Shown here piece after piece: positions 4,110-47,099 of a stretch of DNA of 64,000 bases. Origin of the DNA: a bacterium. Its GTDB lineage: Bacteria > Patescibacteriota > Minisyncoccia > Minisyncoccales > GWA2-46-15. The stretch spans positions 384,632 to 448,631 of the forward strand of contig JAUYAM010000002.1 of the NCBI GenBank assembly GCA_030693425.1, read 5' to 3'. Each line of letters starts with the position of its first letter. The first letter of the stretch is position 1. The notes below the pieces were generated by a model that saw only the letters and a program-made list of their open reading frames with translations, searched no databases and was not told the DNA's origin. The translations under genes and the position numbers were made by a program.

Positions 4110-5312
4110 TCAGTAGCCTTTGAGCCTTTTTAAATTGCGGTGCTCCCGGATTCTTTCTAAGGATTTGGCTTCAATCTGGCGGATCCTCTCTCTGGTGACT
4201 CCAAATTCCTTGCCGATCTCTTCAAGCGTGTGATTGACCCCGTCTTTTAGGCCAAACCTCATCGCCAGGATCTTTTGCTCTCTCGGAGTCAGATCAACTA
4301 AAATGCTTTCCAGCCTTTCCCTTAATAAGGTTCTGGCCGCCATAATGTTGGGCGGGATTTCCTTTTGATCCTCGATGAACTCCGCCAAAATGCTGTCTTC
4401 ATCATCCTCGCCGACCGGAGTCTCCAGGGAAATCGTGTCCTGAGAAATCTTCATCAAATGATAGACTTTTCCCAAAGGAATGCCCATCTCGGCAGAAATC
4501 TCTTCTGCGATCGGCTCCCTGCCCAAGTCTTGAAGAAGCCTCTTTTTCGCCTTGGCGTACTTGGAAATAGTTTCGACCATGTGAACCGGAATCCTGATGG
4601 TTCTGGCCTGGTCGGCCAAGGCCCGGGTGATTGCCTGCCTGATCCACCAGGTGGCATAGGTCGAGAACTTATAGCCCTTTCTCCAGTCAAACTTCTCAAC
4701 TGCTCGGAATAACCCGAGATTGCCTTCCTGAATTAGATCGAGAAAAGTCAGATTCGGAGACCGGCCGATGTACTTTTTGGCGATGGAAACTACCAGCCTT
4801 AAATTAGCCTGGGCCAGCCTTTTTTTTGCTTCCTCGTCCCCTTTTTCGATCCTTTTGGCCAGTTCCTTTTCCTCGTCGGGAGTCAAGAAAGAAACTCTGC
4901 CGATCTCTTTCAGGTAAAGCTGGATCGGATCGGGCTTGGCCTCAAAAACCCTTTTTGTTTTGTCTTTGACTTTTCCCAGATCCAGAAACTCCTGGGATTC
5001 TTTCAAATCCAGGCCCTGGTCCTGAAGAGCCTGATAAAAAGCTTCCAGCCCCTTAACGTCCATTTCCACCCGGGGAAAGTAATGGAGGATCTCGTCATAA
5101 GTGACAAAGCCCCTTTCCTTGCCTTTGTTCAGAAGCTCGGAGACTTTCTCTTTGATAAAAACCTTGGCCGGCCGGCCGAGCCCGACCGCTTTTATTATTT
5201 TGGCCTTCCGCCTTTTTACCTTGGACAAGCGCTTTTTGGGCCCTTTCCTAGCTTTTTCAAAACGTTTTGGCTTTTTCTTGGCCATAATGGCCCGGCGATG
5301 TTTCTTTCTCAT
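4110..5312 (-). CDS. rpoD: RNA polymerase primary sigma factor (sigma-70 family)
   Basis: Region 2 [25 protein letters not shown] and region 4.2 [20 protein letters not shown]. Confidence 0.95.
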
Positions 5313-10750: not shown

Positions 10751-10780
10751 ATGTACTGGTTCATGACATATGATACACTT
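10751..10780 (+). repeat. 30-nt box ATGTACTGGTTCATGACATATGATACACTT (copy 1 of 2)
   Basis: Identical 30-mer at 47070-47099. Confidence 0.85.
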
Positions 10781-19580: not shown

Positions 19581-20315
19581 TCAAGTTATTTCAATCTCTC
19601 TGAAAACTGTTTTCATAGAAACGTTCTCCCTCGGGGCAGAAATATCTTTCTGGGGAATCAAGAATACTTTCCTGATTAAATTAACAATTTGGTGGATATC
19701 TTCAAGTTTTTGCTCCAACTCCAGACCTTTCGCAGAAAAGTTCACAGGCAGGTTTAAGTCAACGGGAATATCTTTGTCAATGTGTATTTTCTTGTTCGGG
19801 TCTATATTCAGCATGTCTTTTAAAGGAATTTCCATATCTATCTTGAAATTATCATCAATGGGAATATCCAAGCTGACCGGCACTTTTACAGATACGGGGA
19901 TATCCATATCCAAGGAAAAAGGAACTTCAATCGGATAAATGCCGTAAAAAGGAACATTTATGTTTACAGTAACTTTTTGGTCCCCTTTTACGGGAACTTT
20001 GGTATTTACCTCAAATTCTTTTTCAATATGAAAGGTTTTGTTTATAGGAACATACTGATCTATTTTAACCGTCTGGGGCAGAATTTCATTCAAATCAATA
20101 ATGTCTTTTAAAAACATATCCAGTTTAATGGGTATGATTTGGTTAATAGCAATGTTTGCTGAAATTCCGGGGTCAATTAAAGAAGATATTTGTTTGTCTA
20201 TTGAGTCGCAAATAAAAGAAACCTGGCGCCTGACATAGAAAAATCCGCCTCCTATTACCAATAGAACCACTATGCCAATAATAACGGATAATAATGACAG
20301 TGATTTTAAGTTCAT
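19581..20315 (-). CDS. N-terminally anchored repeat protein (DIPV/PV-rich), intact paralog
   Basis: One TM then repeated ..VPV..DIPV.. units; close paralog at 30056-30691. Confidence 0.65.
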   Translation of the reverse strand: MNLKSLSLLSVIIGIVVLLVIGGGFFYVRRQVSFICDSIDKQISSLIDPGISANIAINQIIPIKLDMFLKDIIDLNEILPQTVKIDQYVPINKTFHIEKEFEVNTKVPVKGDQKVTVNINVPFYGIYPIEVPFSLDMDIPVSVKVPVSLDIPIDDNFKIDMEIPLKDMLNIDPNKKIHIDKDIPVDLNLPVNFSAKGLELEQKLEDIHQIVNLIRKVFLIPQKDISAPRENVSMKTVFREIEIT

Positions 20316-22400: not shown

Positions 22401-22437
22401 GAAGAAATTAATCTGTTTTTCTTGATTTTAGCGCAAA

Positions 22438-22482
22438 ATGAGACAAATGAGACACGGAAGCGGGGTTTTGGTAGTGTCTCAT
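22438..22482 (-). repeat. ATGAGACAC hairpin family, copy A2
   Basis: Minus strand ATGAGACAC-N18-GTGTCTCAT-TTGTCTCATTTTGCGCTAAAAT. Confidence 0.8.
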
Positions 22483-22484
22483 TA

Positions 22485-23666
22485 TCACACAAGACTGTGC
22501 TTTTGAGCAAACTTATCTATCCTATCAAAAGCCTCGTGAATTAACTTGGCATCTGCGGCAAAGGACATCCGCAAATGGTTTTTGCCGGCCGGCCCCATGC
22601 TATCTCCGGGAATTGTAATCACCTTGGCTTCATCAACCAGCCTCTTGGCAAAATCAAGAGCTGGCATATCAAAACCGACTATTCTTGGGAAAGCATAATA
22701 TGCTCCATCGGGCCAGGAAAATGCAAACAGTTTGGGCAATCTTTCTAATCTCTCACAAATTGCCTGTCTTGATTCGGTAAACTTCGTTTTGAAATAACTG
22801 ATTGCTTCTTCGCCACGAGGATCAGATAGAGCGGCGATGGAGGCGACGATGGAAGGCGTTGATGGACTAATGCTGAAATAGGTATGGACGTCGTTGATCT
22901 TTGAGATAATCTCGGCGTTGGCATAAACATAGCCGATTCTCCAGCCGGTCATGGCAAACTCTTTGGAAAAGCTCTTGCAGACAATGAGGTTGTTTCTCAA
23001 TTCCGGAATCTGCAGCGGGCTGAATAATTCTTTGCCATAAGTTAAAAAGTCGTAGGCCTCGTCGAGAACAAGGATTAAATTGTTCTTCAAAATAATGTCT
23101 GACAACCTCCTAATTTCTGCCTCACTCAAAACCGTTCCGGTCGGGTTATTTGGATTGGTCAGAATGACCATTCTTGTCTTTGGGGTGATCGCTTTTTCCA
23201 GTCTTCCTAAATCGATGGACCAATTATTATTCTCGTCGTAGGAAACAAAGACCGGTTTGGCTTGGGCCAAACGAATCTGCGAAAGATGAAGAGGATAACT
23301 CGGATCAAAGTAAATAACTTCATCGTCTTTTTCCAAAAAAGCCATGATGGCTGAAAACAGTCCTCCGATTCCGCCCACGGTGAGATAAGTTTCTTCCAGT
23401 TTTGGCGCAAAACCATGTTTTCTCTCAACCTTTTTAATTATCAGTGTTTTCAATTCGTTTTCAATCTTAGGCAAAGAGTATTGGCCGATTGTCGGATCAG
23501 ACTTTGATCTCACGTGAAGATAATCATAAATAAACTGGGGTGTCGGAAAAAGCGGCGTCCCCTGGCCGAGAGAAATAACATCCGGATATTTTGCCGCATA
23601 TCGCATCATTGCGCCGATACCGGCATTGGGCACATTTTGCACTCGCTGAGTGAATTTATAGTCCAT
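22485..23666 (-). CDS. Class I/II PLP-dependent aminotransferase
   Basis: NPNNPTG and SFSKEFAMTGWRIGY (PLP lysine) motifs. Confidence 0.9.
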   Translation of the reverse strand: MDYKFTQRVQNVPNAGIGAMMRYAAKYPDVISLGQGTPLFPTPQFIYDYLHVRSKSDPTIGQYSLPKIENELKTLIIKKVERKHGFAPKLEETYLTVGGIGGLFSAIMAFLEKDDEVIYFDPSYPLHLSQIRLAQAKPVFVSYDENNNWSIDLGRLEKAITPKTRMVILTNPNNPTGTVLSEAEIRRLSDIILKNNLILVLDEAYDFLTYGKELFSPLQIPELRNNLIVCKSFSKEFAMTGWRIGYVYANAEIISKINDVHTYFSISPSTPSIVASIAALSDPRGEEAISYFKTKFTESRQAICERLERLPKLFAFSWPDGAYYAFPRIVGFDMPALDFAKRLVDEAKVITIPGDSMGPAGKNHLRMSFAADAKLIHEAFDRIDKFAQKHSLV

Positions 23667-24068: not shown

Positions 24069-24131
24069 ATTTATTCACTTTATCAAAAAAGCCTGCCTAC
24101 CGGTAGGCAGGCGCCTTTCTGGCGACTTTTT
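24066..24131 (-). terminator. Junction module copy 3: GCCTGCC palindrome terminator + leaderless -10
   Basis: Minus strand AAAGTCGCCAGAAAGGCGC-CTGCCTACCGGTAGGCAGGC-TTTTTTGATAAAGTGAATAAAT-ATG; 11-bp perfect stem at 24091-24112. Confidence 0.7.
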
Positions 24132-28150: not shown

Positions 28151-28214
28151 AAAAAAGCCTGCCTACCGCCTGCCTGCCGGCAGGCAGGGTAGGCAGGCGC
28201 CTTTCTGGCGACTT
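28151..28214 (-). terminator. Junction module copy 4 with expanded GCCTGCC palindrome
   Basis: About 21-bp stem at 28157-28198 (GCCTGCCTACCGCCTGCCTGCC/GGCAGGCAGG-GTAGGCAGGC), flanked by GCGCCTTTCTGGCGAC and a T-run on the minus strand. Confidence 0.7.
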
Positions 28215-28325
28215 TAGAAACTTTTTCATCTCTCGATCCTTCAATAAATTCAGGTCTTCGGCTCAGGCTCGAAGAGATGGTGAACCATTCGGCCCCGAGC
28301 TCATGGCCGAGGGGCTCGCCGAACC

Positions 28326-29963: not shown

Positions 29964-30009
29964 TGGGCTGGCTCGACTCAAAGCCTGCCCCAATGGCGTA
30001 TTTTAAAGG
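29964..30009 (-). repeat. Degenerate relative of the R6 tRNA-3'-half-like sequence
   Basis: Minus strand CCCTTTAAAATACGCCATTGGGGCAGGCTTTGAGTCGAGCCAGCCC aligns with 21233-21316 except for the 35-nt insertion. Confidence 0.6.
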
Positions 30010-30055
30010 GTTTTTCGCCTTTTTAGTTAAGCAACTAATATCCCGAAGCAGAAAT

Positions 30056-30691
30056 TTATTTTTGAGGGATTAAAAATATCTTCCTGACCAAATTAACGAT
30101 GCGTTGGATATCTCCAAGTTTTTGCTCCAACCCCAGACCTTTGGCAGAAAAATTCACCGGCACGCTTAAGTCAACAGGAATGTCTTTGTCAATGCGTATT
30201 TTTTTGTCCGGGTCTATATTGAGCATGTCTTTTAAGGGAATTTCCATATCTACCTTAAAATTGTCGTTGATAGGAATATCCAAGCTGACCGGCACTTTTA
30301 CAGATACGGGGATATCCATATCCAAGGAAAAAGGAACTTCAATCGGATAAATGCCGTAAAAAGGAACATTTATGTTTACAGTAACTTTTTGATCCCCTTT
30401 TACGGGAACTCTGGTATTTACCTCAAATTCTTTTTCAATGTGGAAAGTTTTATTTATGGGGACATACTGGTCTATTTTGACTGTCTGGGGCAGAATTTCA
30501 TTCAAATCAATGATGTCTTTCAAAAACATATCCAGCTTAATGGGCATGGTTTGGTTTATGGCAATGTTGGCTGAAATCCCGGGGTCAATCAAAGAGGATA
30601 TTTGCTTATCCATTGAGTCGCAGATAAGAGAAACTTGGCGCCTGACATAGAAAAATCCGCCTCCTATCGCCAGCAAAACAACTGCGGCCAT
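30056..30691 (-). pseudogene. Decaying paralog of 19581-20315 (start codon ATG>ATA, premature TAA)
   Basis: Nucleotide alignment by eye: ATAAACTCAAAATCA vs ATGAACTTAAAATCA at the 5' end. AAATAAATTTCTGC vs AAAGATATTTCTGC at the 3' end. A 211-aa ORF from an internal Met remains. Confidence 0.55.
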
Positions 30692-30855
30692 AATCGCGGC
30701 CGATAATGGTAATGATTTTGAGTTTATGGAATTGGAATTATTTGATAACTATCTTCAGTATATCATATTGTCCAAAAAGGACTTTCTTTTTGTTTAATAC
30801 CGGGCGTTATAAAAAAGGTACCTGACCCCTTTTACCTTCCTTCGGGTGGAAAAAC

Positions 30856-31623
30856 TCAAATTTTATTGTGCACAAGAATCAAAGTATTTCCGACAACCAC
30901 AAAATAATTATGTGGAAACGATGTTTGGAGATTATAAACGCTTAAAGGAATCGATATATTTGTCTTTTCTAAATTATATATTTTAACATCATTCTCGCCA
31001 TATCCAACCATTTTCTCGCCTAAGTTTAATTCTCTAACTCGTTTCCAAGTTAAAGATCCGTCTATATTTCTTACGGCGATAGGATGTTCGGAGGTAACGC
31101 CCAATACATCGTTAATCAAATAATAATCACTTGTCATTCTTGCTCGGTATTTTTGCACCGTGGATATGACGTACTTATCATCTTTATAGTCATAGCCTAT
31201 TATCTTATCACCAACTTTTAGATTTTCGATTGATTGGACACCGTTGGGTGTCAGCACTTTTGTTTCTTCGACAAAACTTCCTCCAGATGGAAAGGAATAC
31301 CACATGACTGTAGCATATGAGTAGAAAATTATGCCCACAATGAAAAGTGCGGATAAGATAAGACTAAATATTCTAAATTTAAACTTATATTCTTGAGTAA
31401 TAAATTTCGAAGCTAAAAAACCCACCCAAAAGGCGATTGGGAACCAAATAATTGCGAGCAAAATAAAGCCTTGAATCTCTGTTATCCATATCCCGTAATA
31501 TTGTCGGATTGAAGTCGTCAGGAAGTATAACAAGTCGAACAAGAAAAAAGTTAAAACCGTTGTTAGTATTGATGTTCCAACAACAACAAGGGGGTTCTTA
31601 AGATTTGTGGTTATATTTTTCAT
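30856..31623 (-). CDS. Four-TM membrane protein with C-terminal Hint (intein-like) domain
   Basis: Block B VTSEHPI; VYNLQTSFPHNYFVV; terminal LILVHN-KI; N-terminal KVLTPNGVQSIENLKVGDKI without the usual Cys. Confidence 0.75.
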   Translation of the reverse strand: MKNITTNLKNPLVVVGTSILTTVLTFFLFDLLYFLTTSIRQYYGIWITEIQGFILLAIIWFPIAFWVGFLASKFITQEYKFKFRIFSLILSALFIVGIIFYSYATVMWYSFPSGGSFVEETKVLTPNGVQSIENLKVGDKIIGYDYKDDKYVISTVQKYRARMTSDYYLINDVLGVTSEHPIAVRNIDGSLTWKRVRELNLGEKMVGYGENDVKIYNLEKTNISIPLSVYNLQTSFPHNYFVVVGNTLILVHNKI

Positions 31624-31717
31624 AATTTTAGTTCGATTAATTTATTAATATTATTCTAACAATTCTTCAATTGAAACGCCGAGAGCTTTGATAATTTTGA
31701 GGTAAGTCGGTCTCTCG

Positions 31718-31762
31718 ATAAAAAATGCTGACTGCGGGGATAATCTCCGGTACTTTGAACCG
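31718..31762 (-). repeat. tRNA-trailer-like motif copy R3 with T-arm-like hairpin
   Basis: Minus strand CGGTTCAAAGTACCGGAGATTATCCCCGCAGTCAGCATTTTTTAT. Confidence 0.8.
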
Positions 31763-31868
31763 AAAAAATGACTCAAATTTCAAGGATGTTGATAAGAGTA
31801 TATACGAATTAAGGGCTATGTTCAAACAACGTCCTGAATGGTTTGAAATTAATATTAACCCCGAGAGT

Positions 31869-32483
31869 TTAACATACGCTTTTTAACTCAAGTAAAGAAA
31901 TAATTTTTGGTGTGTAATTATATTTGTTTTCTCTATCAATTAATATTGCTTCAAAACCTACTCCCTTGGCTCCCATAATGTCTTGGTCTAAAGAATCTCC
32001 AATCATAAGCACTTTGCTTGGCTTTACTTGCATGCCGCGTACTGCCAGTTGAAAAATTTTAGGGTCGGGCTTCATAAACCCTGCTTCGAAGGAGAAAATT
32101 TCTCTATCGAAATAATGTCTTAAATCCAACCTTCTCACCTGCTCTCTTGTTATTGGTGGGGAATTGGTTATCAAGACTAATTTTTTGCCTTTTTCTTTTA
32201 AGTAGCCTAAGACATCTTTTGTCTCTGGATACAGTTTAGAGCTAGAGTTGATAAGCCAGTCCTTGATAGATGTTAGCTCTTCTTCTGTTGTAAATATTTC
32301 CTTATCTACACGTACGAGAAATTTATCCAAAGAGGAATCTTCGGTATGCCACCGGACAAAAAGTTCTTTTAGTTTTTTGAATCGTTCTGATCCGAGCTTT
32401 TCTTCTAAACGTTTTCCAACGTTCTCTATGTCTTCAAGAAAAGCAATCGTATTCCAGAGATCAAATAATATAACTTTATACAT
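31869..32483 (-). CDS. HAD-superfamily hydrolase
   Basis: Start moved to MYKVILFDLWNT (motif I); ITNSP and GDSLDQD motifs; the track's 56-aa N-terminal extension runs through the GC-rich non-coding island. Confidence 0.8.
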   Translation of the reverse strand: MYKVILFDLWNTIAFLEDIENVGKRLEEKLGSERFKKLKELFVRWHTEDSSLDKFLVRVDKEIFTTEEELTSIKDWLINSSSKLYPETKDVLGYLKEKGKKLVLITNSPPITREQVRRLDLRHYFDREIFSFEAGFMKPDPKIFQLAVRGMQVKPSKVLMIGDSLDQDIMGAKGVGFEAILIDRENKYNYTPKIISLLELKSVC

Positions 32484-32495
32484 ACATATTTTGGG

Positions 32496-32870
32496 GCGGT
32501 GTGTATTTGAAAATATCCGAACCGAACTGGCTGGGCCCCGCCTGCGTTGACTCGGCCTTCGTAGCCACTCTCGCCTCGCCAGAGCCTTCGGCGGAGCGCG
32601 GGTCGGCGAAGGAGGCAACTTCGGCGGGCAGGTCGGCGGGCGGCCCCGCAACTATCTCGCTTCGCTCGAAGTGCGGGGTAAAAATTCCCCCTAGCCCCCT
32701 GGAGTTTACCCCGCATAATCCCGAAGGGATTTGTGCGGGACCCGCCTCGCCTTGCCTGCCCGACCGAAGCAGTGCGTAGGCGGGAAGCGGAAGCGGAAAG
32801 AACGATTTCAAGTTTTTCGTTCCGCTTTTAGCGGAACTCCGAGCTTTGCTCGGTTTGGCGGCAAATTTCC
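32496..32870 (-). ncRNA. GC-rich hairpin-dense island Y (candidate structured RNA; function unknown)
   Basis: Visibly GC-rich vs flanks. 11-bp perfect stem 32672-32682/32705-32715; hairpins ATCCC-GAA-GGGAT, CCGAGC-TTT-GCTCGG, CCGC-TTTTA-GCGG; several CCCCGC/GCGGGG segments. Strand assignment tentative. Confidence 0.3.
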
Positions 32871-32875
32871 TATCT

Positions 32876-33007
32876 TTTATCTGCTATTAAAATAACAAAT
32901 TTACAATTTAATGTATATGGAGGATTTGCTGCTTCAAAATCCTCTATAACTTCTGATTCATACATTTGTGCTTGATAATTTCGAAAAAGGTTTTTTAGAA
33001 CCCTTTT
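32876..33007 (-). repeat. Perfect 132-bp duplicate of the methyltransferase gene 3' end (copy without the rest of the gene)
   Basis: Identical by eye to 35313-35444. Confidence 0.9.
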
Positions 33008-33010
33008 GTG

Positions 33011-33032
33011 GACGGGGGACGTTTCACTTTTA
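33011..33032. repeat. REP-like element, orientation a (GACGGGGGACGTTTCACTTTT)
   Basis: Reverse complement matches AAAAG(A/T)GAAACGTCCCC at 33738-33790. Confidence 0.75.
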
Positions 33033-33041
33033 AACAGAGTT

Positions 33042-33692
33042 TTAGTCATTTTTAATGTGTTGGCTTAATTTCCTTTCTATCTTTCTTTTCTCCATATATT
33101 TTTGACTATTGCTTCCCCATATCTCCTCACTATATGTTTTTTTAATTATCTGAGAGATAGTTAGTTTTTGATAGTTTATCTGCCTTTCTTTCTTGTCTTT
33201 TCCTAATCCTTGATAAAAGGAATCATCTGTTAAAAGTTCGTTTTCTTTTCCTTGGGCATAATAACCATAGCTTGAATAAGGATATTCTTGAGGTTTTTTT
33301 GTGATATTGGCTCTTACTGGATTTAATTCAATATATTTTCCACATTGAATAAAATATTCATCTTTTCCTACTGGCTTGTTTTTAAATCTGTTTTGCCAAA
33401 AGTGTCCTGTCCAGCCATACTTTTTCCTAAAATAATGATAATAGGAAAGATTTAGTTTTTTCATTAAAACAGAAAAATCTGTAGATTTATTGGTTTGGAT
33501 TAGAAGATGGACGTGATTTGGCATTAAACAATAATGATAAAGATCAAAAGGATGTTCTTTTTTATATTTTTTAATCAAGTTTAGAAAATACAAATAATCT
33601 TCTTTTTCTCTAAAGATTACATTTTTATTGTTTCCTCTTGTTATTATATGATAGCAAGATTGAAATAAAAGAAAACGAGGTAGCCTTGGCAT
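33042..33692 (-). CDS. REP-associated tyrosine transposase (RAYT; IS200/Y1 transposase-like)
   Basis: CYHIITRGNN...; HUH motif MPNHVHLLI; about 216 aa; flanked by inverted REP-like sequences. Confidence 0.85.
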   Translation of the reverse strand: MPRLPRFLLFQSCYHIITRGNNKNVIFREKEDYLYFLNLIKKYKKEHPFDLYHYCLMPNHVHLLIQTNKSTDFSVLMKKLNLSYYHYFRKKYGWTGHFWQNRFKNKPVGKDEYFIQCGKYIELNPVRANITKKPQEYPYSSYGYYAQGKENELLTDDSFYQGLGKDKKERQINYQKLTISQIIKKTYSEEIWGSNSQKYMEKRKIERKLSQHIKND

Positions 33693-33737
33693 TGTTTAAT
33701 TCTAACATGGATTAACTAAAATGACTAACTTCTTATT

Positions 33738-33802
33738 CAAAAGAGAAACGTCCCCTTTTAACGCCAAAAGAGAAACGTCCCCTTTTAACGTCCCCTTTTA
33801 AC
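33738..33802. repeat. Tandem REP-like repeats, orientation b (2.5 x about 26 nt)
   Basis: CAAAAGAGAAACGTCCCCTTTTAACG twice, then TCCCCTTTTAAC. Confidence 0.85.
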
Positions 33803-33870
33803 TTTTAACCTTCGGGTGAGGGGTTGACCATGGAGAATAGATTAAATATTTGATGAGTCTCGGCCTCTCG

Positions 33871-33889
33871 ATAAAAAATGCTGACTATG
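33871..33889 (-). repeat. tRNA-trailer-like motif copy R2 (5' part diverged)
   Basis: Minus strand CATAGTCAGCATTTTTTATCGAGAGGCCGA. Confidence 0.7.
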
Positions 33890-33924
33890 AAACGTACAAA
33901 TTGCTACGCAATTTTACGTTCCAG

Positions 33925-33973
33925 CCACGTTGAACGTAAGATTTTGCAAAGCAAAATCGACGTTCTTACGTGG
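33925..33973. repeat. 49-nt imperfect palindrome rich in ACGT boxes (REP-related cluster)
   Basis: CCACGT-TGAACGTAAGATTTTGC-AAA-GCAAAATCGACGTTCTTACGTGG. Confidence 0.65.
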
Positions 33974-34025
33974 CGGAGAACTATTTACAGTGTTATAACC
34001 TATTTTACGTTGAGAACTGTGTGTA

Positions 34026-35090
34026 TTAATCGGTGATCCAATATATATCTACAGGACTATTTTGTTTATAATTATAGTTACTTAAGATTCTTGCCCTGTT
34101 TCCCGTAGCCATATCAAGCAATTCAACCGTAATTCGGTACGGACCTCCACAATCTATATCCCATGGCAGACAACTCGTATCTCCTAATAAGAGATATTTA
34201 CCATCTGGAGATGCTGCAAGCGCATCGATACCAAATTTTTGTTTCTTCGGATATGTTTGTATTATTTCCTTTTTGTTTATGTTATAAATTCGAATCACAT
34301 CCCGTCCTGATTGAGTATTCCAATTTGGAATATAGATATACGCAATTGTTTCGCTATTAAGCACCTGGAATCTATCTACATAGTCTAATCCTTGCAATCG
34401 AAGAATTTCTTTTGAAGAAACATTCAACTTATACAAAAATCCGTAAATTCTAATAAGCACATTGTTTTCATCAAGCCAATCTAAAACACTTCTGTGTTTC
34501 CAATGATAGAAAGAAAAATCATCACACTCGCTCTTAGGACGACCACCGATTTTACAAATTTCCTGAATGTTGGATGCGAGATCTACGTGAGTTGTAGTGT
34601 CATCGTGCGTGTTAATAACCTCTATGTTTTGTTGGGATAAAAGTGCAATCTGTTCTCCATTTTTAGAAAAACTTATGACATAGCCGGGAACATTTTTTTG
34701 AGTATCTTCATACCTTAAAAGAAATGTCTTACTGATGTTGCCTTGCGAGTCGCTTACAATGAGTTTCGGATCTGGCAATACACCCTTATAGCCCAAGACT
34801 TTTCTGTCTGCAGTCACTATAGCCTGATGCTGACCATCTCTGGAAAATATTCGTTCGGATACGACAAACCTATTCTCATCTATTGTTGGTTGTGTTAATG
34901 CGCTCTTGATAACTGACTGTTTAGCGATATCCAGCCATCCATCTATAAGATAAATCTTGGAATTTATGCCAGTATTGAACTGTCTGATTGTGTGCTGTTG
35001 CAGTATTTTATTACCAATGGAAAAAAATGTTACGATCAGAATAACTATCAATGCATACCGTAGAGTTTTTGAGGTCAATGCAGTTTTCAC
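34026..35090 (-). CDS. N-terminally anchored beta-propeller-like protein (TolB/PD40-like, weak)
   Basis: GTG start behind TATAAT; TM; SPDGKYLLLGD-type repeat. Confidence 0.45.
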   Translation of the reverse strand: MKTALTSKTLRYALIVILIVTFFSIGNKILQQHTIRQFNTGINSKIYLIDGWLDIAKQSVIKSALTQPTIDENRFVVSERIFSRDGQHQAIVTADRKVLGYKGVLPDPKLIVSDSQGNISKTFLLRYEDTQKNVPGYVISFSKNGEQIALLSQQNIEVINTHDDTTTHVDLASNIQEICKIGGRPKSECDDFSFYHWKHRSVLDWLDENNVLIRIYGFLYKLNVSSKEILRLQGLDYVDRFQVLNSETIAYIYIPNWNTQSGRDVIRIYNINKKEIIQTYPKKQKFGIDALAASPDGKYLLLGDTSCLPWDIDCGGPYRITVELLDMATGNRARILSNYNYKQNSPVDIYWITD

Positions 35091-35130
35091 GCCATTAAAT
35101 CATACCATATTATAGAATAGCGATCAAAGT

Positions 35131-35305
35131 GTGGTGTGCGTTCGAAAAAATCTTTACCCTGTACTTCTACTTCGGGGGACGATTTTCCACCTTCACTAAA
35201 GTTTCGGCGGACAGGCAAGTCTTTCCCTGCCCCGTACCGAATTCATTCTGGTGCGGGGTTTGCTTTGCCCTCCGTAGTTTTTACAAAGGATGGGGCGGCA
35301 AATTC
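35131..35305 (-). ncRNA. GC-rich island X, shorter relative of island Y (candidate structured RNA)
   Basis: Shares both ends with Y (GTGTG..TTCGAAAAAATC and GGCGGCAAATT). 9-bp stem CCCCGTACC/GGTGCGGGG; contains REP-like CGGGGGACGATTTTCCAC. Confidence 0.3.
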
Positions 35306-35306
35306 T

Positions 35307-35987
35307 TTATTCTTTATCTGCTATTAAAATAACAAATTTACAATTTAATGTATATGGAGGATTTGCTGCTTCAAAATCCTCTATAACTTCTGATTCATAC
35401 ATTTGTGCTTGATAATTTCGAAAAAGGTTTTTTAGAACCCTTTTTGCATCATTTAAAGTATAAAGGGGTTCTTTGCCAAATATAATTAATTTTCCATTTA
35501 GAGAAGTTCTTTTTATGTCTGTTGCAAAATCAATTATTACTCTTCCGTTTGGTTTAAGAATCCTATCAATTTCAAAAATTATTTGTCGTAAAACTTCTTT
35601 TGGAAAAAGATGTAAGGTACCCGTGCAAAAAATGCCATCAAATAGACCGTCTTCGAATGGAAATTTCTTGGTCATATCGAAAGCTTTCGTATTTAATTTT
35701 TTCCTATATTCCTTTGGAGTATTGTGCCACAATTTACTAAGGGCACTTTCATCAATATCGGTAACGACAACAAAATCGGCTTTTTTTAATAGATTCAAAT
35801 TATAGCGACCATCGCCAGCGGCGAGATTTAACCATTTGCCATGAATTTCAATCTTCCCCAAGAGTTCCATGGTATCTTTATCGCCAGTTCCCCAAATTGA
35901 AGTTTTAGCCGTTTCAAAATAATTAACTCCTTCGGTAAAGATATACTTATCTTCTTTTGGCTTATGGGGTCTTATTATTTTTTCCAT
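35307..35987 (-). CDS. Class I SAM-dependent methyltransferase
   Basis: Motif I WLNLAAGDGRY; post-I VVTDID. Confidence 0.8.
   Translation of the reverse strand: MEKIIRPHKPKEDKYIFTEGVNYFETAKTSIWGTGDKDTMELLGKIEIHGKWLNLAAGDGRYNLNLLKKADFVVVTDIDESALSKLWHNTPKEYRKKLNTKAFDMTKKFPFEDGLFDGIFCTGTLHLFPKEVLRQIIFEIDRILKPNGRVIIDFATDIKRTSLNGKLIIFGKEPLYTLNDAKRVLKNLFRNYQAQMYESEVIEDFEAANPPYTLNCKFVILIADKE
35313..35444 (-). repeat. 132-bp segment (3' end of the methyltransferase CDS) duplicated perfectly at 32876-33007
   Basis: Direct repeats bracket the RAYT/beta-propeller segment. Confidence 0.9.
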
Positions 35988-36009
35988 AAAGGTTTTTTAC
36001 AGAGGTTTT

Positions 36010-36063
36010 TACAGAGGTCAGACCTCTGTAAATTTTCAATTGTGGGAGGTCGGACCTCCCACA
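36010..36063. repeat. Two adjacent perfect hairpins sharing a GAGGTC-N-GACCTC core
   Basis: TACAGAGGTCAGACCTCTGTA (36010-36030) and TGTGGGAGGTCGGACCTCCCACA (36041-36063). Confidence 0.8.
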
Positions 36064-36086
36064 TTTTTATCTCGGTCGGGACTATT

Positions 36087-36132
36087 TTAAGCAAAAATGA
36101 GACAAATGAGACACAGAAACAGGATTTTTGGT
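36087..36132 (-). repeat. ATGAGACAC hairpin family, copy A3
   Basis: Minus strand ATGAGACAT-N18-GTGTCTCAT-TTGTCTCATTTTTGCTTAAAAT; close match to A2. Confidence 0.8.
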
Positions 36133-36186
36133 AATGTCTCATCATCTCGAAACAAGTTGCGCCGTGCTAAACCTCACATATATGGT

Positions 36187-36987
36187 TTAGCCCTCAATCA
36201 ATAAAGCCATTACCTTCTTCAAAACCTTTTTGAATTTTAAGGTATGCATCCAACGAGTAGGCGGTACGCCTACTAAAAGTATTGTGTTCGTATAATTAGC
36301 GAATAATTTTCCTTGCAAGGCCCTTTTTAAATTATATGGCCTATTGTCCTTCTCCAATAGCCCGTTGTACGCATCTTTCTGGAACGCGATAATACTTCCT
36401 TTTTGTTTGATAAATCGTTCTATGACTTTTCGCACCCGTTGTCTCTCTGCGCTGGCTAATTGGTCAAATGCTTTTTTGCCGAACAAACGCCGCAGCCCCA
36501 TGACCCCTGACCATTTTGGATCGCTGGCAGGACTAGGAAACGTAAAAAATACTTCCATCCCCACAACAAAAAGAGAGTCGTATTTTAGATTGAAAAAATT
36601 AGATTTGAATAAATCATTATCATCGCCTCCCCGTGGAGATATATTAATAATTCCAAGTTCCCTCATGACTTTCCAGAACCGATGTTCTCTGCCATTTCCC
36701 TCGAAAGCAAAATATATATCGGCCAATACGCTATGAGGAGCGGGATTGCCGAATAAAAATAAGATTTTGGGTTTATGGTCAGATAATTTTGGAATCCACG
36801 ATTTGTGCAAATAAACCAGTTTGTCTTGTTTCCTTTCTATAACTTTTCCCAAAAAGCGATCTGCCTTAAAAAACTCGTTATAACGATTCCAGAATTTCTT
36901 CAAGTCATCTTTTTGGTATATCTGCGACAAATCAATCTCGCATACAAATTGCCCCCTAGAAGTGTTTTTATAACGAAAAAAGTTCAT
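36187..36987 (-). CDS. Hypothetical protein, uracil-DNA-glycosylase-superfamily-like (weak)
   Basis: LFLFGNPAPHS (motif A-like) and FTFPSPAS (HPSP-like motif B with F for H). Confidence 0.35.
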   Translation of the reverse strand: MNFFRYKNTSRGQFVCEIDLSQIYQKDDLKKFWNRYNEFFKADRFLGKVIERKQDKLVYLHKSWIPKLSDHKPKILFLFGNPAPHSVLADIYFAFEGNGREHRFWKVMRELGIINISPRGGDDNDLFKSNFFNLKYDSLFVVGMEVFFTFPSPASDPKWSGVMGLRRLFGKKAFDQLASAERQRVRKVIERFIKQKGSIIAFQKDAYNGLLEKDNRPYNLKRALQGKLFANYTNTILLVGVPPTRWMHTLKFKKVLKKVMALLIEG

Positions 36988-37034
36988 GAAAAAATCTCAT
37001 CTAGATCGATTTTAAACTTTTCTGAAGACAGCTC

Positions 37035-37514
37035 TCAGAAAGTTTTTATTCCTTCCATTCTCTCGCCCAGCGTTCTATCGGGAATATATACCAGCGCATC
37101 CACGCCTTTGATTTCGATCATTTCGTAATCCTTTTTAAGTATTAACGTAAAATTACCGCTACTCCGCAAGTATTTTTCTTTAAACTGCTGGTAATCCTTG
37201 ATTTTAAAATCCGGGGCGCCCCTTTGCGGCCTCGTTGCGTCTGGTTTCCTGATTTTTATCAGCGATAAAATTCCCGCTGGCGTTTTTATCGGTTCCTTCA
37301 ATAGAAATGTTCTGCCTGTCCTAATAGTCTCTTTATCCACTTCCTCGCCTATGCTCTCAGCGGCAAGCTCCAAATCCTTGTACTCGTTTTCGTCTTTGGA
37401 AAAGATTGCGACGTAATCAATAACCGCTTCCTTTTCATCGGTATTGTTCTTAATAGCAGACAAACCCTGTTCAACTAAATAACACACAATTTTTTCTAAT
37501 TCGCTTTTGTTCAT
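37035..37514 (-). CDS. Hypothetical protein
   Basis: 159-aa ORF directly behind junction module copy 5; no motif recognised. Confidence 0.5.
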   Translation of the reverse strand: MNKSELEKIVCYLVEQGLSAIKNNTDEKEAVIDYVAIFSKDENEYKDLELAAESIGEEVDKETIRTGRTFLLKEPIKTPAGILSLIKIRKPDATRPQRGAPDFKIKDYQQFKEKYLRSSGNFTLILKKDYEMIEIKGVDALVYIPDRTLGERMEGIKTF

Positions 37515-37557
37515 ATATTCATTTTATCAAAAAAGCGCCTTTCTGGCGACTTTAAAA
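37512..37557 (-). promoter_or_regulatory. Junction module copy 5 (terminator hairpin + extended -10, leaderless)
   Basis: Minus strand AAAGTCGCCAGAAAGGCGCTTTTTTGATAAAATGAATAT-ATG. Confidence 0.65.
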
Positions 37558-37670
37558 TTATAGCACCTGCTAAAAGAAGGCAGCGTATCAGACAAACGCG
37601 AATTACTGGCGAATTTACGGAGTAGGTTGAATTACAAGGATAAAAAAATTACCCTGATTGAGGAATAAGG

Positions 37671-37708
37671 AAAACAGAAAGAGCGATATAAATCGCTCTT
37701 TCTGTTTT
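37671..37708 (-). terminator. Strong intrinsic (bidirectional-looking) terminator
   Basis: ACAGAAAGAGCGAT-loop-ATCGCTCTTTCTGT, flanked by an A-run and a T-run. Confidence 0.8.
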
Positions 37709-37765
37709 AATCTTTTATCAAAGCAGTCGGGTCGCCACTCGCTCACGGCTAATCAGACCGCGCCG

Positions 37766-37785
37766 ATAAAAAAATGTTGTCTGCG
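37766..37785 (-). repeat. tRNA-trailer-like motif copy R1
   Basis: Minus strand CAGGTTCGCAGACAACATTTTTTTATCGGCG, starting 18 nt after the S8 peptidase stop. Confidence 0.8.
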
Positions 37786-37802
37786 AACCTGGTAACGGTT
37801 AG

Positions 37803-39146
37803 TTAGGGAGTTGGATAAAGGAGGGCGTTATAAACATTAATTCGGCCGTAACCAAAGTAGTTATCTTGGCCCAGAGTTCCTAAATCACTGGCCGTGGCTT
37901 CAATAATATTTCTTACCGCATTTTTATCGCGAGTAGCATCTTGAGCGAAAAGCAATCCAGCCAAACCAGCAACTTGAGGAGCAGCCATCGAAGTGCCTGA
38001 ACCAACATCATAATGGCGAGCACGACCATTTACGGTTCCAATATAGAATTTATAGCTGGGGAAGGTAGAAAAAATATTCTCTCCAGGAGCCGCCACATCT
38101 ACTTGAGGACCTACGCTGCTAAAGCTGGCGATATCATCCTTATAATTAGTAGCCGAAACTGCGATGACGTTTTCATAGGCAGCAGGATAGATCACTGCGC
38201 CGCCATTGTTATTTCCAGCGGCGGCGACTATCAGTACTCCTTTCCCCCAAGCATAATTGACTGCATCTCTTATAGTCTGAGAATCACCGCTACCTAAACT
38301 TAAATTGATTACTTTAGCCCCGTTATCTACCGCATATCTAATTCCCTTGGCTTCATCGGAGGTAAAACCTATTCCCGAATCGCTTAAAACTTTAACCACC
38401 ATAATTTTGATATTATCGGGAAAAGCAACTCCAGCTATCCCTTTGCCATTATTAGTAACGGCAGCGGCAATTCCTGAAACATGAGTGCCATGGCCGTATC
38501 CGTCGTGAGGCTTATTATTTCTTTTAGCAAAATTCCAACCCCAAGTATCATCAATAAAACCATTCCCATCGTCATCTTTTTTATTGCCGGCAATTTCAAG
38601 TTCATTTATCCAGATTTTACTTTTTAAATCTAGGTGAGTTTCATCAATGCCTGAATCAACAATGGCAATAACTGTAGTAGCCCAATTATAGTTAGAAAAT
38701 TCACTCCAAGCTTCATCCCAATCAACATCAGCATCATTAGTACCAGCTCCTATTAATTTACTTGAATTAATTGGTGAATCTGGATTTCCTGAACCCTTAT
38801 AAATCGTTTGAGCAATATTATTTAATGCCCACTGATTAGTATAAGCAGTGTCATTTGAACCTAAAGGATAAACGTAATAATCTGGTTCAACATAGACCAC
38901 ATCGGGTCTTGTTTGATATTCTTTAACTTTCTCCATAACCTTTCCTTCAGGTACCGCAATCACTCTGAAAGGTTCTTTGTCTGCCTTAAATTTAACAATC
39001 ACTCTATCTGGAGCATACTTAGCTTGGTTATCGTTATTCGCTTTGCCGGTTGAAAAATCAGAAAACGCCATTATGTTAACAGTAAGAACCAAGCTGATTA
39101 TTATTACCAGTGAGAATAATGTGATAAAAAGTTTTTTCCTAATCAT
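37803..39146 (-). CDS. Secreted S8 subtilisin-family serine peptidase
   Basis: Signal/TM; AIVDSGID, HGTHVSGIAAA, GTSMAAPQVAGLAGLL. Confidence 0.9.
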   Translation of the reverse strand: MIRKKLFITLFSLVIIISLVLTVNIMAFSDFSTGKANNDNQAKYAPDRVIVKFKADKEPFRVIAVPEGKVMEKVKEYQTRPDVVYVEPDYYVYPLGSNDTAYTNQWALNNIAQTIYKGSGNPDSPINSSKLIGAGTNDADVDWDEAWSEFSNYNWATTVIAIVDSGIDETHLDLKSKIWINELEIAGNKKDDDGNGFIDDTWGWNFAKRNNKPHDGYGHGTHVSGIAAAVTNNGKGIAGVAFPDNIKIMVVKVLSDSGIGFTSDEAKGIRYAVDNGAKVINLSLGSGDSQTIRDAVNYAWGKGVLIVAAAGNNNGGAVIYPAAYENVIAVSATNYKDDIASFSSVGPQVDVAAPGENIFSTFPSYKFYIGTVNGRARHYDVGSGTSMAAPQVAGLAGLLFAQDATRDKNAVRNIIEATASDLGTLGQDNYFGYGRINVYNALLYPTP

Positions 39147-39324
39147 ATTTAATTAAAGAGTTAAATTTTAAATTTTTCGACATTTTGGTTTACCTATTTT
39201 AAAGATAAATCAATCTATGCCGACTGTCAAGCCAAAATAAAAACTCGTCTATGCGCTGTCTGTCCCGAACAAAATTCGAACCACTCGGGTCGCTGACCAC
39301 TCGCGATCACTCGGGTCATGCCGA

Positions 39325-39344
39325 TAAAAAGTTGTCAATGCGGA
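39325..39344 (-). repeat. tRNA-trailer motif copy R0 (the actual 3' trailer of tRNA-Ser)
   Basis: Minus strand ..CCTTCCG-CATTGACAACTTTTTATCGGC. Confidence 0.8.
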
Positions 39345-39425
39345 AGGGGTGGGATTCGAACCCACGGACCCCGTGAGGAGCATGGTTCTCCAAACCATTC
39401 CATTTGACCGCTCTGGCACCCTTCC
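39341..39425 (-). tRNA. tRNA-Ser (anticodon GGA), long variable arm, CCA not encoded
   Basis: Acceptor GGAAGGG/CCCTTCC, anticodon stem ATGGT/ACCAT with loop TTGGAGA, T-arm GTGGG-TTCGAAT-CCCAC. Confidence 0.9.
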
Positions 39426-47069: not shown

Positions 47070-47099
47070 ATGTACTGGTTCATGACATATGATACACTT
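47070..47099 (+). repeat. 30-nt box ATGTACTGGTTCATGACATATGATACACTT (copy 2 of 2)
   Basis: Identical to 10751-10780. Confidence 0.85.

Follow-up and report, generated by a model that had tools for sequence, protein, structure and literature searches.

The stretch of DNA analysed here (the window) comprises 64,000 nucleotides (nt) of contig JAUYAM010000002.1, positions 384,632 to 448,631, in assembly GCA_030693425.1 of a bacterium from the Patescibacteriota lineage GWA2-46-15. Near its centre lies an insertion sequence (IS)-like unit with the gene for a transposase of the TIRYT class, which occupies a segment together with a passenger gene encoding a beta-propeller protein. The segment is bracketed by two identical copies of the end of a class I S-adenosylmethionine (SAM) methyltransferase (MTase) gene. 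One copy is part of the complete gene; the other is truncated and adjoins one end of the IS. The features that carry the argument are, in order along the window (numbers with the prefix L denote fetched sequences):

32500-32867, minus strand: element A, GC-rich (61%), GAAATTTGCCGCC at its start and ...TTTTCAAATACACACC at its end, downstream of the truncated MTase copy
32868-32875, minus strand: T_r, the terminus of the truncated copy, ...AAA AGA TAG (K-R-stop), unlike the full gene at 5 of 8 positions; MTase allele L021 ends alike
32876-33007, minus strand: R', MTase codons 182-225 in a copy that lacks the 5' part of the gene, 132/132 against 35313-35444
33008-33014, plus strand: GTGGACG, 7 nt that partly repeat the IS terminus, read from the sequence, between R' and the right repeat
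33015-33052, plus strand: right-end (gene-distal) terminal inverted repeat, GGGGACGTTTCAC..., 38 nt, 79% complementary with the left end
33042-33692, minus strand: TIRYT or RAYT-like Y1 HUH transposase gene, 216 amino acids (aa), with NHVH at residue 59, WQ at 99-100 and YIELNP at 120
33699-33727, minus strand: promoter-like site, TAGTCA, 17-nt spacer, TG-TAGAAT, inside the left end and just upstream of the transposase ATG
33718-33755, minus strand: left-end terminal inverted repeat, partner of 33015-33052
33756-33802, minus strand: two tandem copies ('stutter') that repeat the left terminus in part, AAAA before each (repeat families D4 and D8)
34026-35090, minus strand: passenger gene for a membrane-anchored beta-propeller protein, 354 aa, an orphan with two homologues only
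35125-35304, minus strand: island X, a stop-codon-following element, AGAATTTGCCGCC ... GGGTAAAGATTTTTTCGAA, attached to the complete MTase gene
35313-35444, minus strand: R, the repeat copy within the complete MTase gene, from the repeat search and base-by-base comparison
35307-35987, minus strand: class I SAM methyltransferase gene, 226 aa, in which AAAAGGG occurs once only, at nt 544, the breakpoint

An earlier reading of the window made from the sequence alone (the sequence-only reading) had described a perfect 132-bp duplication here. Base-by-base comparison confirms the identity of R' and R at every position, and comparison of the window with itself by BLAST, a check which that reading had proposed, recovers the repeat with E=5e-67. 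The identical core corresponds to nt 544-675, codons 182-225/226, of the MTase open reading frame (ORF). The repeat search extends the match to 151 nt at 97% (32857-33007 against 35294-35444). We do not count the extra 19 nt as part of the duplication: they consist of 8 essentially unrelated bases, 5 of which differ between the copies, and the 11-nt motif GGCGGCAAATT, which in related contigs stands right behind the stop codons of many different genes. A length of 132 bp is, as had been pointed out, far beyond that of a target-site duplication. These are short (2-15 bp), and here a single copy abuts an IS end, the other lying 1.5 kb off the left end.

The two copies end differently. In gene orientation the complete MTase gene terminates ...GAT AAA GAA TAA AGAATTTGCCGCC (KE-stop) and leads into island X; this end is the same as that of the closest homologue, L020 (93% aa identity), through GCCGCC. 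The truncated copy terminates ...GAT AAA AGA TAG GAAATTTGCCGCC (KR-stop) and leads into element A. The first 67 nt of element A match the flank behind the MTase gene in the Daviesbacteria contig L010 at 62 of 67 positions, and the element A family occurs behind stop codons of unrelated genes in L009, L010 and L017. Because each copy runs on into its own natural terminus and stop-codon element, both read as bona fide MTase 3' ends of differing history, and the truncated one does not look like a bare 132-nt patch in foreign DNA. The copy at 32876 had been described as having no gene attached. The 5' part of the MTase gene is indeed missing, but the copy keeps its natural MTase terminus, and a fortuitous 59-aa ORF with its start inside the IS end covers R'.

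The perfect identity had also been taken as the sign of a very recent rearrangement. It is not by itself proof of this, as MTase alleles of different metagenomes share blocks of 100% identity beside blocks of 85%. Against L020 and L021, 48-nt blocks at 98-100%, third codon positions included, alternate with blocks at about 85%, so that the alleles are mosaic. Given such alleles, it is plausible that donor and recipient agreed in all 132 nt and yet carried unlike tails.

The transposase unit and its ends

Identification of the ORF at 33042-33692 as a RAYT is upheld by the Pfam family Y1_Tnp (2.4e-18) together with the NHVH and YIELNP motifs. The NCBIfam model REP_Tyr_transpos scores 80.4 bits (cutoff 80), and the IS200 model (transpos_IS200) stays below its cutoff at 24.6 bits against 55. 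The only relative in the Protein Data Bank (PDB) is Escherichia coli TnpAREP (PDB code 4ER8); the HUH histidines align and Tyr120 falls on the catalytic Y115, so that the absence of a catalytic tyrosine, which the sequence-only reading had named as part of its grounds for refutation, is not what we find. Residues H60, H62, W99, Q100 and Y120 are invariant across 22 relatives.

NHVH, WQ(WE) and YIELNP are the signatures given for TnpAY1 subclass 2.1 in Table 1 of Quentin et al. 2018 (PMC6006769), where this subclass is equated with the TIRYT genes of Di Nocera et al. 2013. The latter (PMC3733652) describe a TIRYT as a RAYT-like gene between long terminal inverted repeats with a common GGGGWSAS and no REPs, the whole being termed a 'TIRtron'. 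Group 1 of the RAYTs in Bertels et al. 2017 (PMC5581495) is the same group and is presented there as the most IS-like. The class is credited in these accounts with a C-terminal extension that has a helix-turn-helix (HTH)-like domain, and with a median length of 238 aa. In the window protein about 75 residues follow the Y motif and are conserved in relatives; Pfam reports no HTH family in them at E<=0.01.

The fit with the class as these papers outline it is close. The window protein shares all three motifs and, at 216 aa, has a C-terminal tail past the core of about 120 aa; its gene lies between long terminal inverted repeats with a GGGG-headed motif and without REP hairpins. There are also differences. 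The head of the terminus, GGGGACGT, fits GGGGWSAS at 6 of 8 positions and that of relatives, GGGGACGG, at 7 of 8. The host belongs to the Patescibacteria, which are not among the hosts given in the parts of the TIRYT/RAYT literature used here; those parts likewise make no mention of identical units in differing contexts or of partial tandem copies of a terminus, and the units they describe differ from that of the window, which has a passenger gene and a duplicated gene end joined to it. A full-text search for literature on RAYTs in Patescibacteria found none, the 26 papers that it returned being unrelated. Judged by its sequence, the unit at 33008-33802 is an IS-like TIRtron composed of a TIRYT-class Y1/HUH gene, a promoter-like site and terminal inverted repeats headed GGGGACG. 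It represents a described class in a new host phylum. The ATTAGTCATTTT box within the promoter-like site is kept in relatives, and the site may act as the transposase promoter.

The sequence-only reading had seen inverted REP-like sequences on either side of the gene and, in consequence, a REPtron. Of this the inverted arrangement stands (38 nt, 79%), as do the 2.5 tandem units at 33738-33802, which the repeat search recovers. The REP nature does not: in folding both flanks, on both strands, behave like shuffled sequences, with z from -0.5 to +0.8. Allowing at most one mismatch, GGGGACGTTTC occurs three times in the 64 kb, every time at the transposase gene's own ends, and the window holds no solo copy of the terminus. 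Over 228 kb, made up of the window and the fetched loci, there are 49 termini, and for 46 of them a TIRYT gene is no more than 200 nt away. Since the flanks lack hairpins and the terminus motif is confined to the ends of the gene, we replace the label REPtron by TIRtron. The REPtron (Nunvar 2010, PMC2817692; PDB code 4ER8) has in common with the unit its protein superfamily and the presence of inverted sequences either side of the gene; the window's flanks differ in that they are not hairpin palindromes, have no GTAG head and are not dispersed. The comparison with IS200/IS605 elements (IS608, ISDra2) is similarly mixed. HUH/Tyr chemistry is shared, and so would be the joining of one end to the other border proposed below, as in the IS608 circle junction, with the joint at a short specific sequence. 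Their Y motif is Y...Q as against Y...NP here, and they have two different subterminal hairpins where the window unit has terminal inverted repeats.

A further REP-like copy had been placed in island X. It is not significant, since 25 of 1374 tiles of the window align to the right end equally well. Island X was also considered as a solo right end and rejected, its GAAAATCGTCC box fitting the box GAAATCGTCC of the GC-rich element family as well. Two of the three gene-distant termini in the 228 kb are solo right ends, at L024:1296-1333 and L031:16-51, lying 1.7 and 2.1 kb upstream of a TIRYT gene and oriented like a true right end. Possibly they are what is left of larger units, or mark the borders of such units.

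Does the unit move? The transposase has more than 1300 homologues of about 210-216 aa at 57-81% identity, mostly in Patescibacteria, and the closest relatives of both the transposase and the MTase proteins are from this group. The same inverted GGGGACG[GT]TTC ends are present at 12 loci in species-representative genomes of Saccharibacteria, Gottesman-, Woese- and Nealsonbacteria, CPR2, Microgenomates and one Omnitrophota. In relatives the ends lie about 60-65 nt ahead of the ATG and 10-60 nt behind the stop codon, with inverted repeats that are up to 38/38 perfect (L029). Two loci from different samples, L006 and L007, agree at 100% over a stretch that opens 78 nt ahead of the ATG and runs to the contig end, their flanks being unrelated; between L002 and L003 identity reaches from position -72 to 27 nt beyond the stop codon. 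By sequence comparison these limits represent the sharp borders of a mobile unit of about 750 bp. Many homologue contigs stop at the unit borders. Because 100%-identical units stand in unrelated contexts, the unit behaves as an IS; this holds for the relatives, the copy in the window being the only one in 64 kb. Searches of viral contigs gave no relatives of the transposase or of the MTase. RAYT-class enzymes are, to our knowledge, usually held to be single-copy and domesticated, with activity demonstrated for REP-cleaving members only, and we know of no determination of TIRYT cleavage chemistry or cleavage sites.

Just outside both termini of the IS, tandem partial copies (the 'stutter') repeat the last 4-25 nt of the terminus with up to about 13 nt of flank. 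They occur at nearly every locus (L002-L008, L023-L034, L037, and in the window at 33008-33014 and 33756-33802), as in the example CCGTCCCCTAAAGGGTCCTGTC CGTCCCCTAAAGGGTCCTGT CCCCTAAAGGGTCCTAC from L030. This footprint is family-wide and goes without mention in the sections of the TIRYT/RAYT literature cited here. Short direct repeats at the IS ends were rejected as target duplications: a match of the form xAAAGGG is found in the window and L030 only, and at most loci 1-2 A-rich bases precede GGGG. Loci L002 and L003 have the same TIRYT unit and the same downstream region and differ in their upstream flanks and by a 754-nt segment with a Germane-domain gene (L002:860-1613, absent at L003:1724-1734), an IS-adjacent structural variant.

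The joint and the origin of the duplicated gene end

R' starts 7 nt from the transposase-distal right terminus, and with the slash marking the joint the sequence reads ...AAACGTCCCC CGTCCAC / AAAAGGGTTC... The breakpoint within the 681-nt MTase gene coincides exactly with its single AAAAGGG, a heptamer found 23 times in 64 kb on that strand. AAAAGGG also stands ahead of the left end and of each stutter copy of the left end (GTT/AAAAGGGGACG). In IS608-type HUH transposons the circle junction arises when the 3'-OH at the right end is linked to the left end's 5' border. A right end joined to a look-alike of the left border would be the expected trace of an event at a surrogate end. The joint between right end and MTase fragment is a real, probably transposase-made junction under all four explanations that we consider.

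A comparable arrangement exists in the Microgenomates contig L033 (JALHWS010000179). A hexapeptide-repeat transferase gene (4454-5047, minus strand) has its final 31 codons, together with the region downstream, in a direct repeat of about 190 nt (2758-2931 and 4367-4552), the best 116 nt of which agree at 88%. The copies enclose a left end, a TIRYT gene, a right end and one orphan ORF of 160 aa, and the gene fragment ends 7 nt from the IS terminus. The order is that of the window, namely fragment, IS, passenger and full gene, with the IS reversed and the fragment at the left end. Because the copies have diverged, this layout is no assembly artefact. We considered AAAAGG as a general breakpoint and dropped it; the stretch concerned in L033 is still homologous to the gene (VTKDVAP against VTKNISP), and the real border lies at the 7 nt from the IS end.

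Evidence at the level of reads comes from the independent Logan unitig L001 (2365 nt, from run SRR13727538), which matches window positions 32978-35342 exactly; both inner junctions are therefore present in raw reads. The unitig stops 30 nt (k-1) inside each repeat copy. It covers the inner junctions alone, and the order of the pieces (element A, R', insert, R, MTase) would follow from the contig. The k=31 graph fits A-R-insert-R-MTase and A-R-MTase plus a 2,437-bp circle alike. The real molecules might accordingly be A-R-MTase without the insert and a separate 2,437-bp circle or tandem array of [IS-beta-propeller-X-R], or else two strain haplotypes, threaded together by the contig through the 132-bp repeat. 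The ends of L001, k-1 nt into both copies, leave the de Bruijn graph ambiguous, and perfect direct repeats of 132 bp would also excise such a circle in vivo. We nevertheless regard an assembly origin as improbable: the contig is 453 kb long, a repeat of 132 bp can be resolved by paired reads or by assembly at k=141, and L033 has a like layout with an 88% repeat that can be neither collapsed nor mis-threaded. Even in that case, the junction of right end and R would be real and would still need a joint made by the transposase.

To account for the anatomy of the locus and the position of its joints we prefer the integration, at an MTase gene, of a circle that carried an MTase 3' piece, island X, the beta-propeller passenger and the IS. 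We give this reading a probability of roughly 45%. The circle, its origin and its integration, as we infer them, would proceed as follows. In a donor, the unit would lie downstream of an MTase gene, island X and the beta-propeller gene. The transposase would cut at its own gene-distal end and at the MTase-internal AAAAGGG, which mimics the border of the other end, and would join the two cuts as HUH enzymes do in circle junction formation. This would release a circle of 2,437 nt with the last 44 MTase codons and stop codon, X, the beta-propeller gene and the IS. The circle would re-enter an MTase gene with a different tail (KR-stop, element A), either by a single homologous crossover within the 132 nt or by insertion through the transposase at the same AAAAGGG. 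Either route would leave exactly the observed arrangement. The MTase gene would be intact, its 5' part resident and its 3' end brought in by the circle; X, the passenger and the IS would come next, and the resident 3' end, now displaced, would adjoin the IS terminus. In this case the repeat of 132 bp would be carried homology, like the attL/attR repeats of gene-restoring elements, and no target-site duplication. Recombination had been among the routes of arrival suggested from the sequence alone, and it is a good candidate.

Circle integration of the Campbell type, known from integrative elements that restore the tRNA or protein gene at their site of entry and from single crossovers of suicide plasmids, gives the same succession of intact gene, insert and 5'-truncated 3' fragment as a direct repeat, with the length of the repeat reflecting the carried homology. 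The window differs from integrative elements in having no tyrosine or serine integrase in the insert; among the ORFs scanned, no such recombinase was found between or beside the repeats. The only DNA enzyme of the insert is the HUH transposase, and its terminus borders the carried fragment. In mobilising adjacent DNA by means of one true end and one surrogate site the proposed event resembles that of the HUH elements IS91/ISCR. These use Y2 rolling-circle enzymes of another family, and their cargo is not bracketed by a duplicated gene end.

Instead of arriving on a circle, the fragment might be a relic. The beta-propeller gene and the IS would once have lain between two MTase genes, one followed by X and the other by A, and an IS-adjacent deletion from the right end to the AAAAGGG of the downstream copy would have left the last 44 codons, their identity being due to recent duplication or gene conversion. 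The joint, an IS end fused to an end-like site, fits this history equally, and both tails are natural MTase ends. The MTase gene, with its conserved upstream hairpins and downstream motif, is found in many unrelated contexts and its alleles are mosaic, which points to a mobile or recombinogenic gene; the presence/absence variant of 754 nt in L002 and L003 is IS-adjacent too. A relic would require tandem paralogues at two unrelated loci, for the MTase and for the hexapeptide transferase of L033. Two complete MTase copies on one contig were not seen among the fetched loci, and gene conversion would have to halt exactly one codon short of the stop. Such a history is unlikely in our estimation, yet it deserves serious thought.

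A further explanation builds on the sequence-only reading: a REPtron RAYT would disperse REPs, and replication or a template switch at the nick in the IS end would have newly copied the 132 bp from the neighbouring gene. The allele before such an event is expected to have the right end followed directly by AGATAGGAAATTTGCCGCC. Perfect identity suits a fresh copy. The patch also ends at both sides in A-runs (AAAA and AAA), which offer possible microhomology, and partial tandem copies at the IS ends of all relatives indicate that short templated duplications do occur there. The identical core is what a fresh copy of the neighbouring gene end predicts; the copy's own KR-stop terminus, with TAG, and its L010-type flank are not. 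AGA TAG GAAATTTGCCGCC and element A behind the patch represent a natural MTase terminus and flank, unexpected in unrelated DNA. As the flanks of the transposase gene are in addition neither palindromic nor dispersed, we consider this the least probable of the four, and very unlikely.

Several observations weigh against integration of a circle. An exact search of JGI metagenome contigs for the junction of the KR-stop tail and element A did not find the empty-site allele (MTase, then KR-stop, then element A), and a degenerate 32-nt pattern inside the repeat gave just two contigs already known, with no empty site or donor. No donor arrangement was present among the MTase and related loci examined. 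The contexts of MTase homologues at 81-93% identity are unrelated and include neither a TIRYT gene nor the beta-propeller gene, so that no donor or ancestral arrangement is reconstructed. The circle junction was not seen apart from the chromosomal one. The surrogate or 'pseudo-end' rests on analogy with IS608 and TnpAREP. Given the homology at the protein level, the breakpoint of L033 is not an AAAAGG-type site, and it abuts the other IS end; the argument from mimicry of an end rests therefore on the window alone. A perfect 132 nt beside a tail that differs at 5 of 8 positions requires a very close donor or later gene conversion. Finally, the transposase homologue P0019 occupies one context across 24 contigs, so that not all members of the family are visibly mobile.

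Other contents of the segment and its surroundings

The claim of an enclosed passenger gene is borne out, as is its assignment to the beta-propellers. In the structure model (pLDDT 72, pTM 0.70) a transmembrane helix at the N-terminus accompanies a WD40-like propeller; the highest-ranking PDB matches are propellers without exception, WD40-type ones the best. The two homologues (44-49%) lie in another context. Among ORFs of at least 60 aa between the repeats, the transposase gene and the beta-propeller ORF are the only ones with a family match or homologues. Two features lie between the transposase unit and the beta-propeller gene:

33860-33886, minus strand: conserved intergenic motif GTCAGCATTTTTTATCGAGAGGCCGAG, called a tRNA-trailer motif in the sequence-only reading; second copy at 31707-31733, also in L015
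33907-33990, minus strand: strongly folding palindromic element behind the beta-propeller stop codon (z=-7.8)

The palindrome reported at 33925-33973 folds at -25.3 kcal/mol (z=-7.8). It is the core of the beta-propeller gene's own stop-codon-following element and has ACGTTCAACGTKGCTGGAACG in common with the element behind the MTase gene in L012. The intergenic motif can be written GTCA[GA]CATTTTTTATCGAGAG[GA]CCGAG and recurs at about 180-215 in L015, with a looser form at 39321-39339 next to tRNA-Ser, on its 3' side. In the window, as in another contig, the motif stands about 75-190 nt upstream of the next gene start, and it may be a lineage-specific promoter or terminator box.

Element A and island X belong to a family of GC-rich, hairpin-rich elements that start with AGAATTTGCCGCC a few bases past a stop codon, often continue with AAAGAAAAACTTGAAATCGTCCTTTCCGCTTC and end with GGGTAAAGATTTTTTCAAATACACACC. 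Sites were found at 32500-32867 and 35125-35304 in the window, at L009:898, 2020 and 4505, at L010:5183, 5945 and 6684, and at L017:126. The family is conserved over different Patescibacteria contigs and has no Rfam match; an Rfam search of 32.3-36.2 kb of the window gave nothing meaningful. The elements may be 3' untranslated region RNAs, terminator modules or the borders of mobile cassettes.

The MTase (window 35307-36075; L009-L021) is 60-93% identical over Patescibacteria and DPANN archaea (Nano-, Aenigm- and Woesearchaeota, Diapherotrites). Its non-coding flanks are conserved, with the hairpin TTTACAGAGGTCTGACCTCTGTAAAAACC upstream and AGAATTTGCCGCC downstream, and its contexts are unrelated; judged from these sequences, the gene resembles a cassette that moves horizontally. 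Two perfect hairpins, TGTGGGAGGTCGGACCTCCCACA and TTTACAGAGGTCAGACCTCTGTAAA (36041-36063 and 36008-36032), separate it from a 266-aa ORF in the window and are found upstream of the MTase gene in L012-L019 also (L015 about 130-160).

The locus forms part of a 9.4-kb stretch of low GC content (30000-39425; 0.32-0.41 against 0.44-0.49) that abuts the 3' end of tRNA-Ser(gga) at 39340-39425 and holds genes for a Hint/intein-C protein, a HAD hydrolase, the TIRYT transposase, the MTase, two unknown proteins and an S8 peptidase. A genomic island integrated at tRNA-Ser was considered in view of the low GC and rejected, with no integrase among the ORFs scanned. The Hint protein (30856-31623) is a 255-aa membrane protein with a C-terminal Hint or intein C-terminal splicing motif (PT-HINT, 5.8e-08). 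A direct repeat of 620 nt (19636-20255 and 30048-30667, 90%) covers paralogous ORFs of 244 and 211 aa with no Pfam family, one copy being at the edge of the low-GC stretch. Further dispersed repeats pair 22425-22486 with 36084-36146 (64 nt, 84%), 10751-10780 with 47070-47099 (30 nt, perfect) and 24102-24129 with 28188-28215 (28 nt, perfect). Elsewhere the window has DUF5671, GroEL, UvrA, LemA and M48 genes.

Implications for RAYT-class transposases in Patescibacteria

An insert accompanied by a duplicated gene end is what circle integration ordinarily yields, and no new type of system. In assembly practice, perfect repeats of 100-150 bp around TIRYT units are possible points of ambiguity in genomes of this kind. 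The two IS ends and the AAAAGGG site of the MTase gene provide concrete substrates for biochemistry. Sharp-edged identical copies, a stutter at the termini and the fusion of terminus and gene end in two lineages point to current DNA cutting and joining activity of the class of RAYTs flanked by terminal inverted repeats in small, repeat-poor genomes. For the specialist, the interest lies in present-day activity of the RAYT class, in the partial tandem copies of the termini and in the fusion, seen twice, of a terminus to the 3' end of a gene.

A wider role can be envisaged, which we think rather doubtful. TIRYT units in Patescibacteria would be active transposons that take up neighbouring genes by means of a true end and an end-like site, and in other cells the captured 3' piece would direct the unit back into that same gene, which is widely shared and would be kept, in a homing-like transfer of cargo. 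If true, cargo homing driven by the RAYT class would have been seen twice independently, at the MTase gene here and at the hexapeptide transferase gene in L033.

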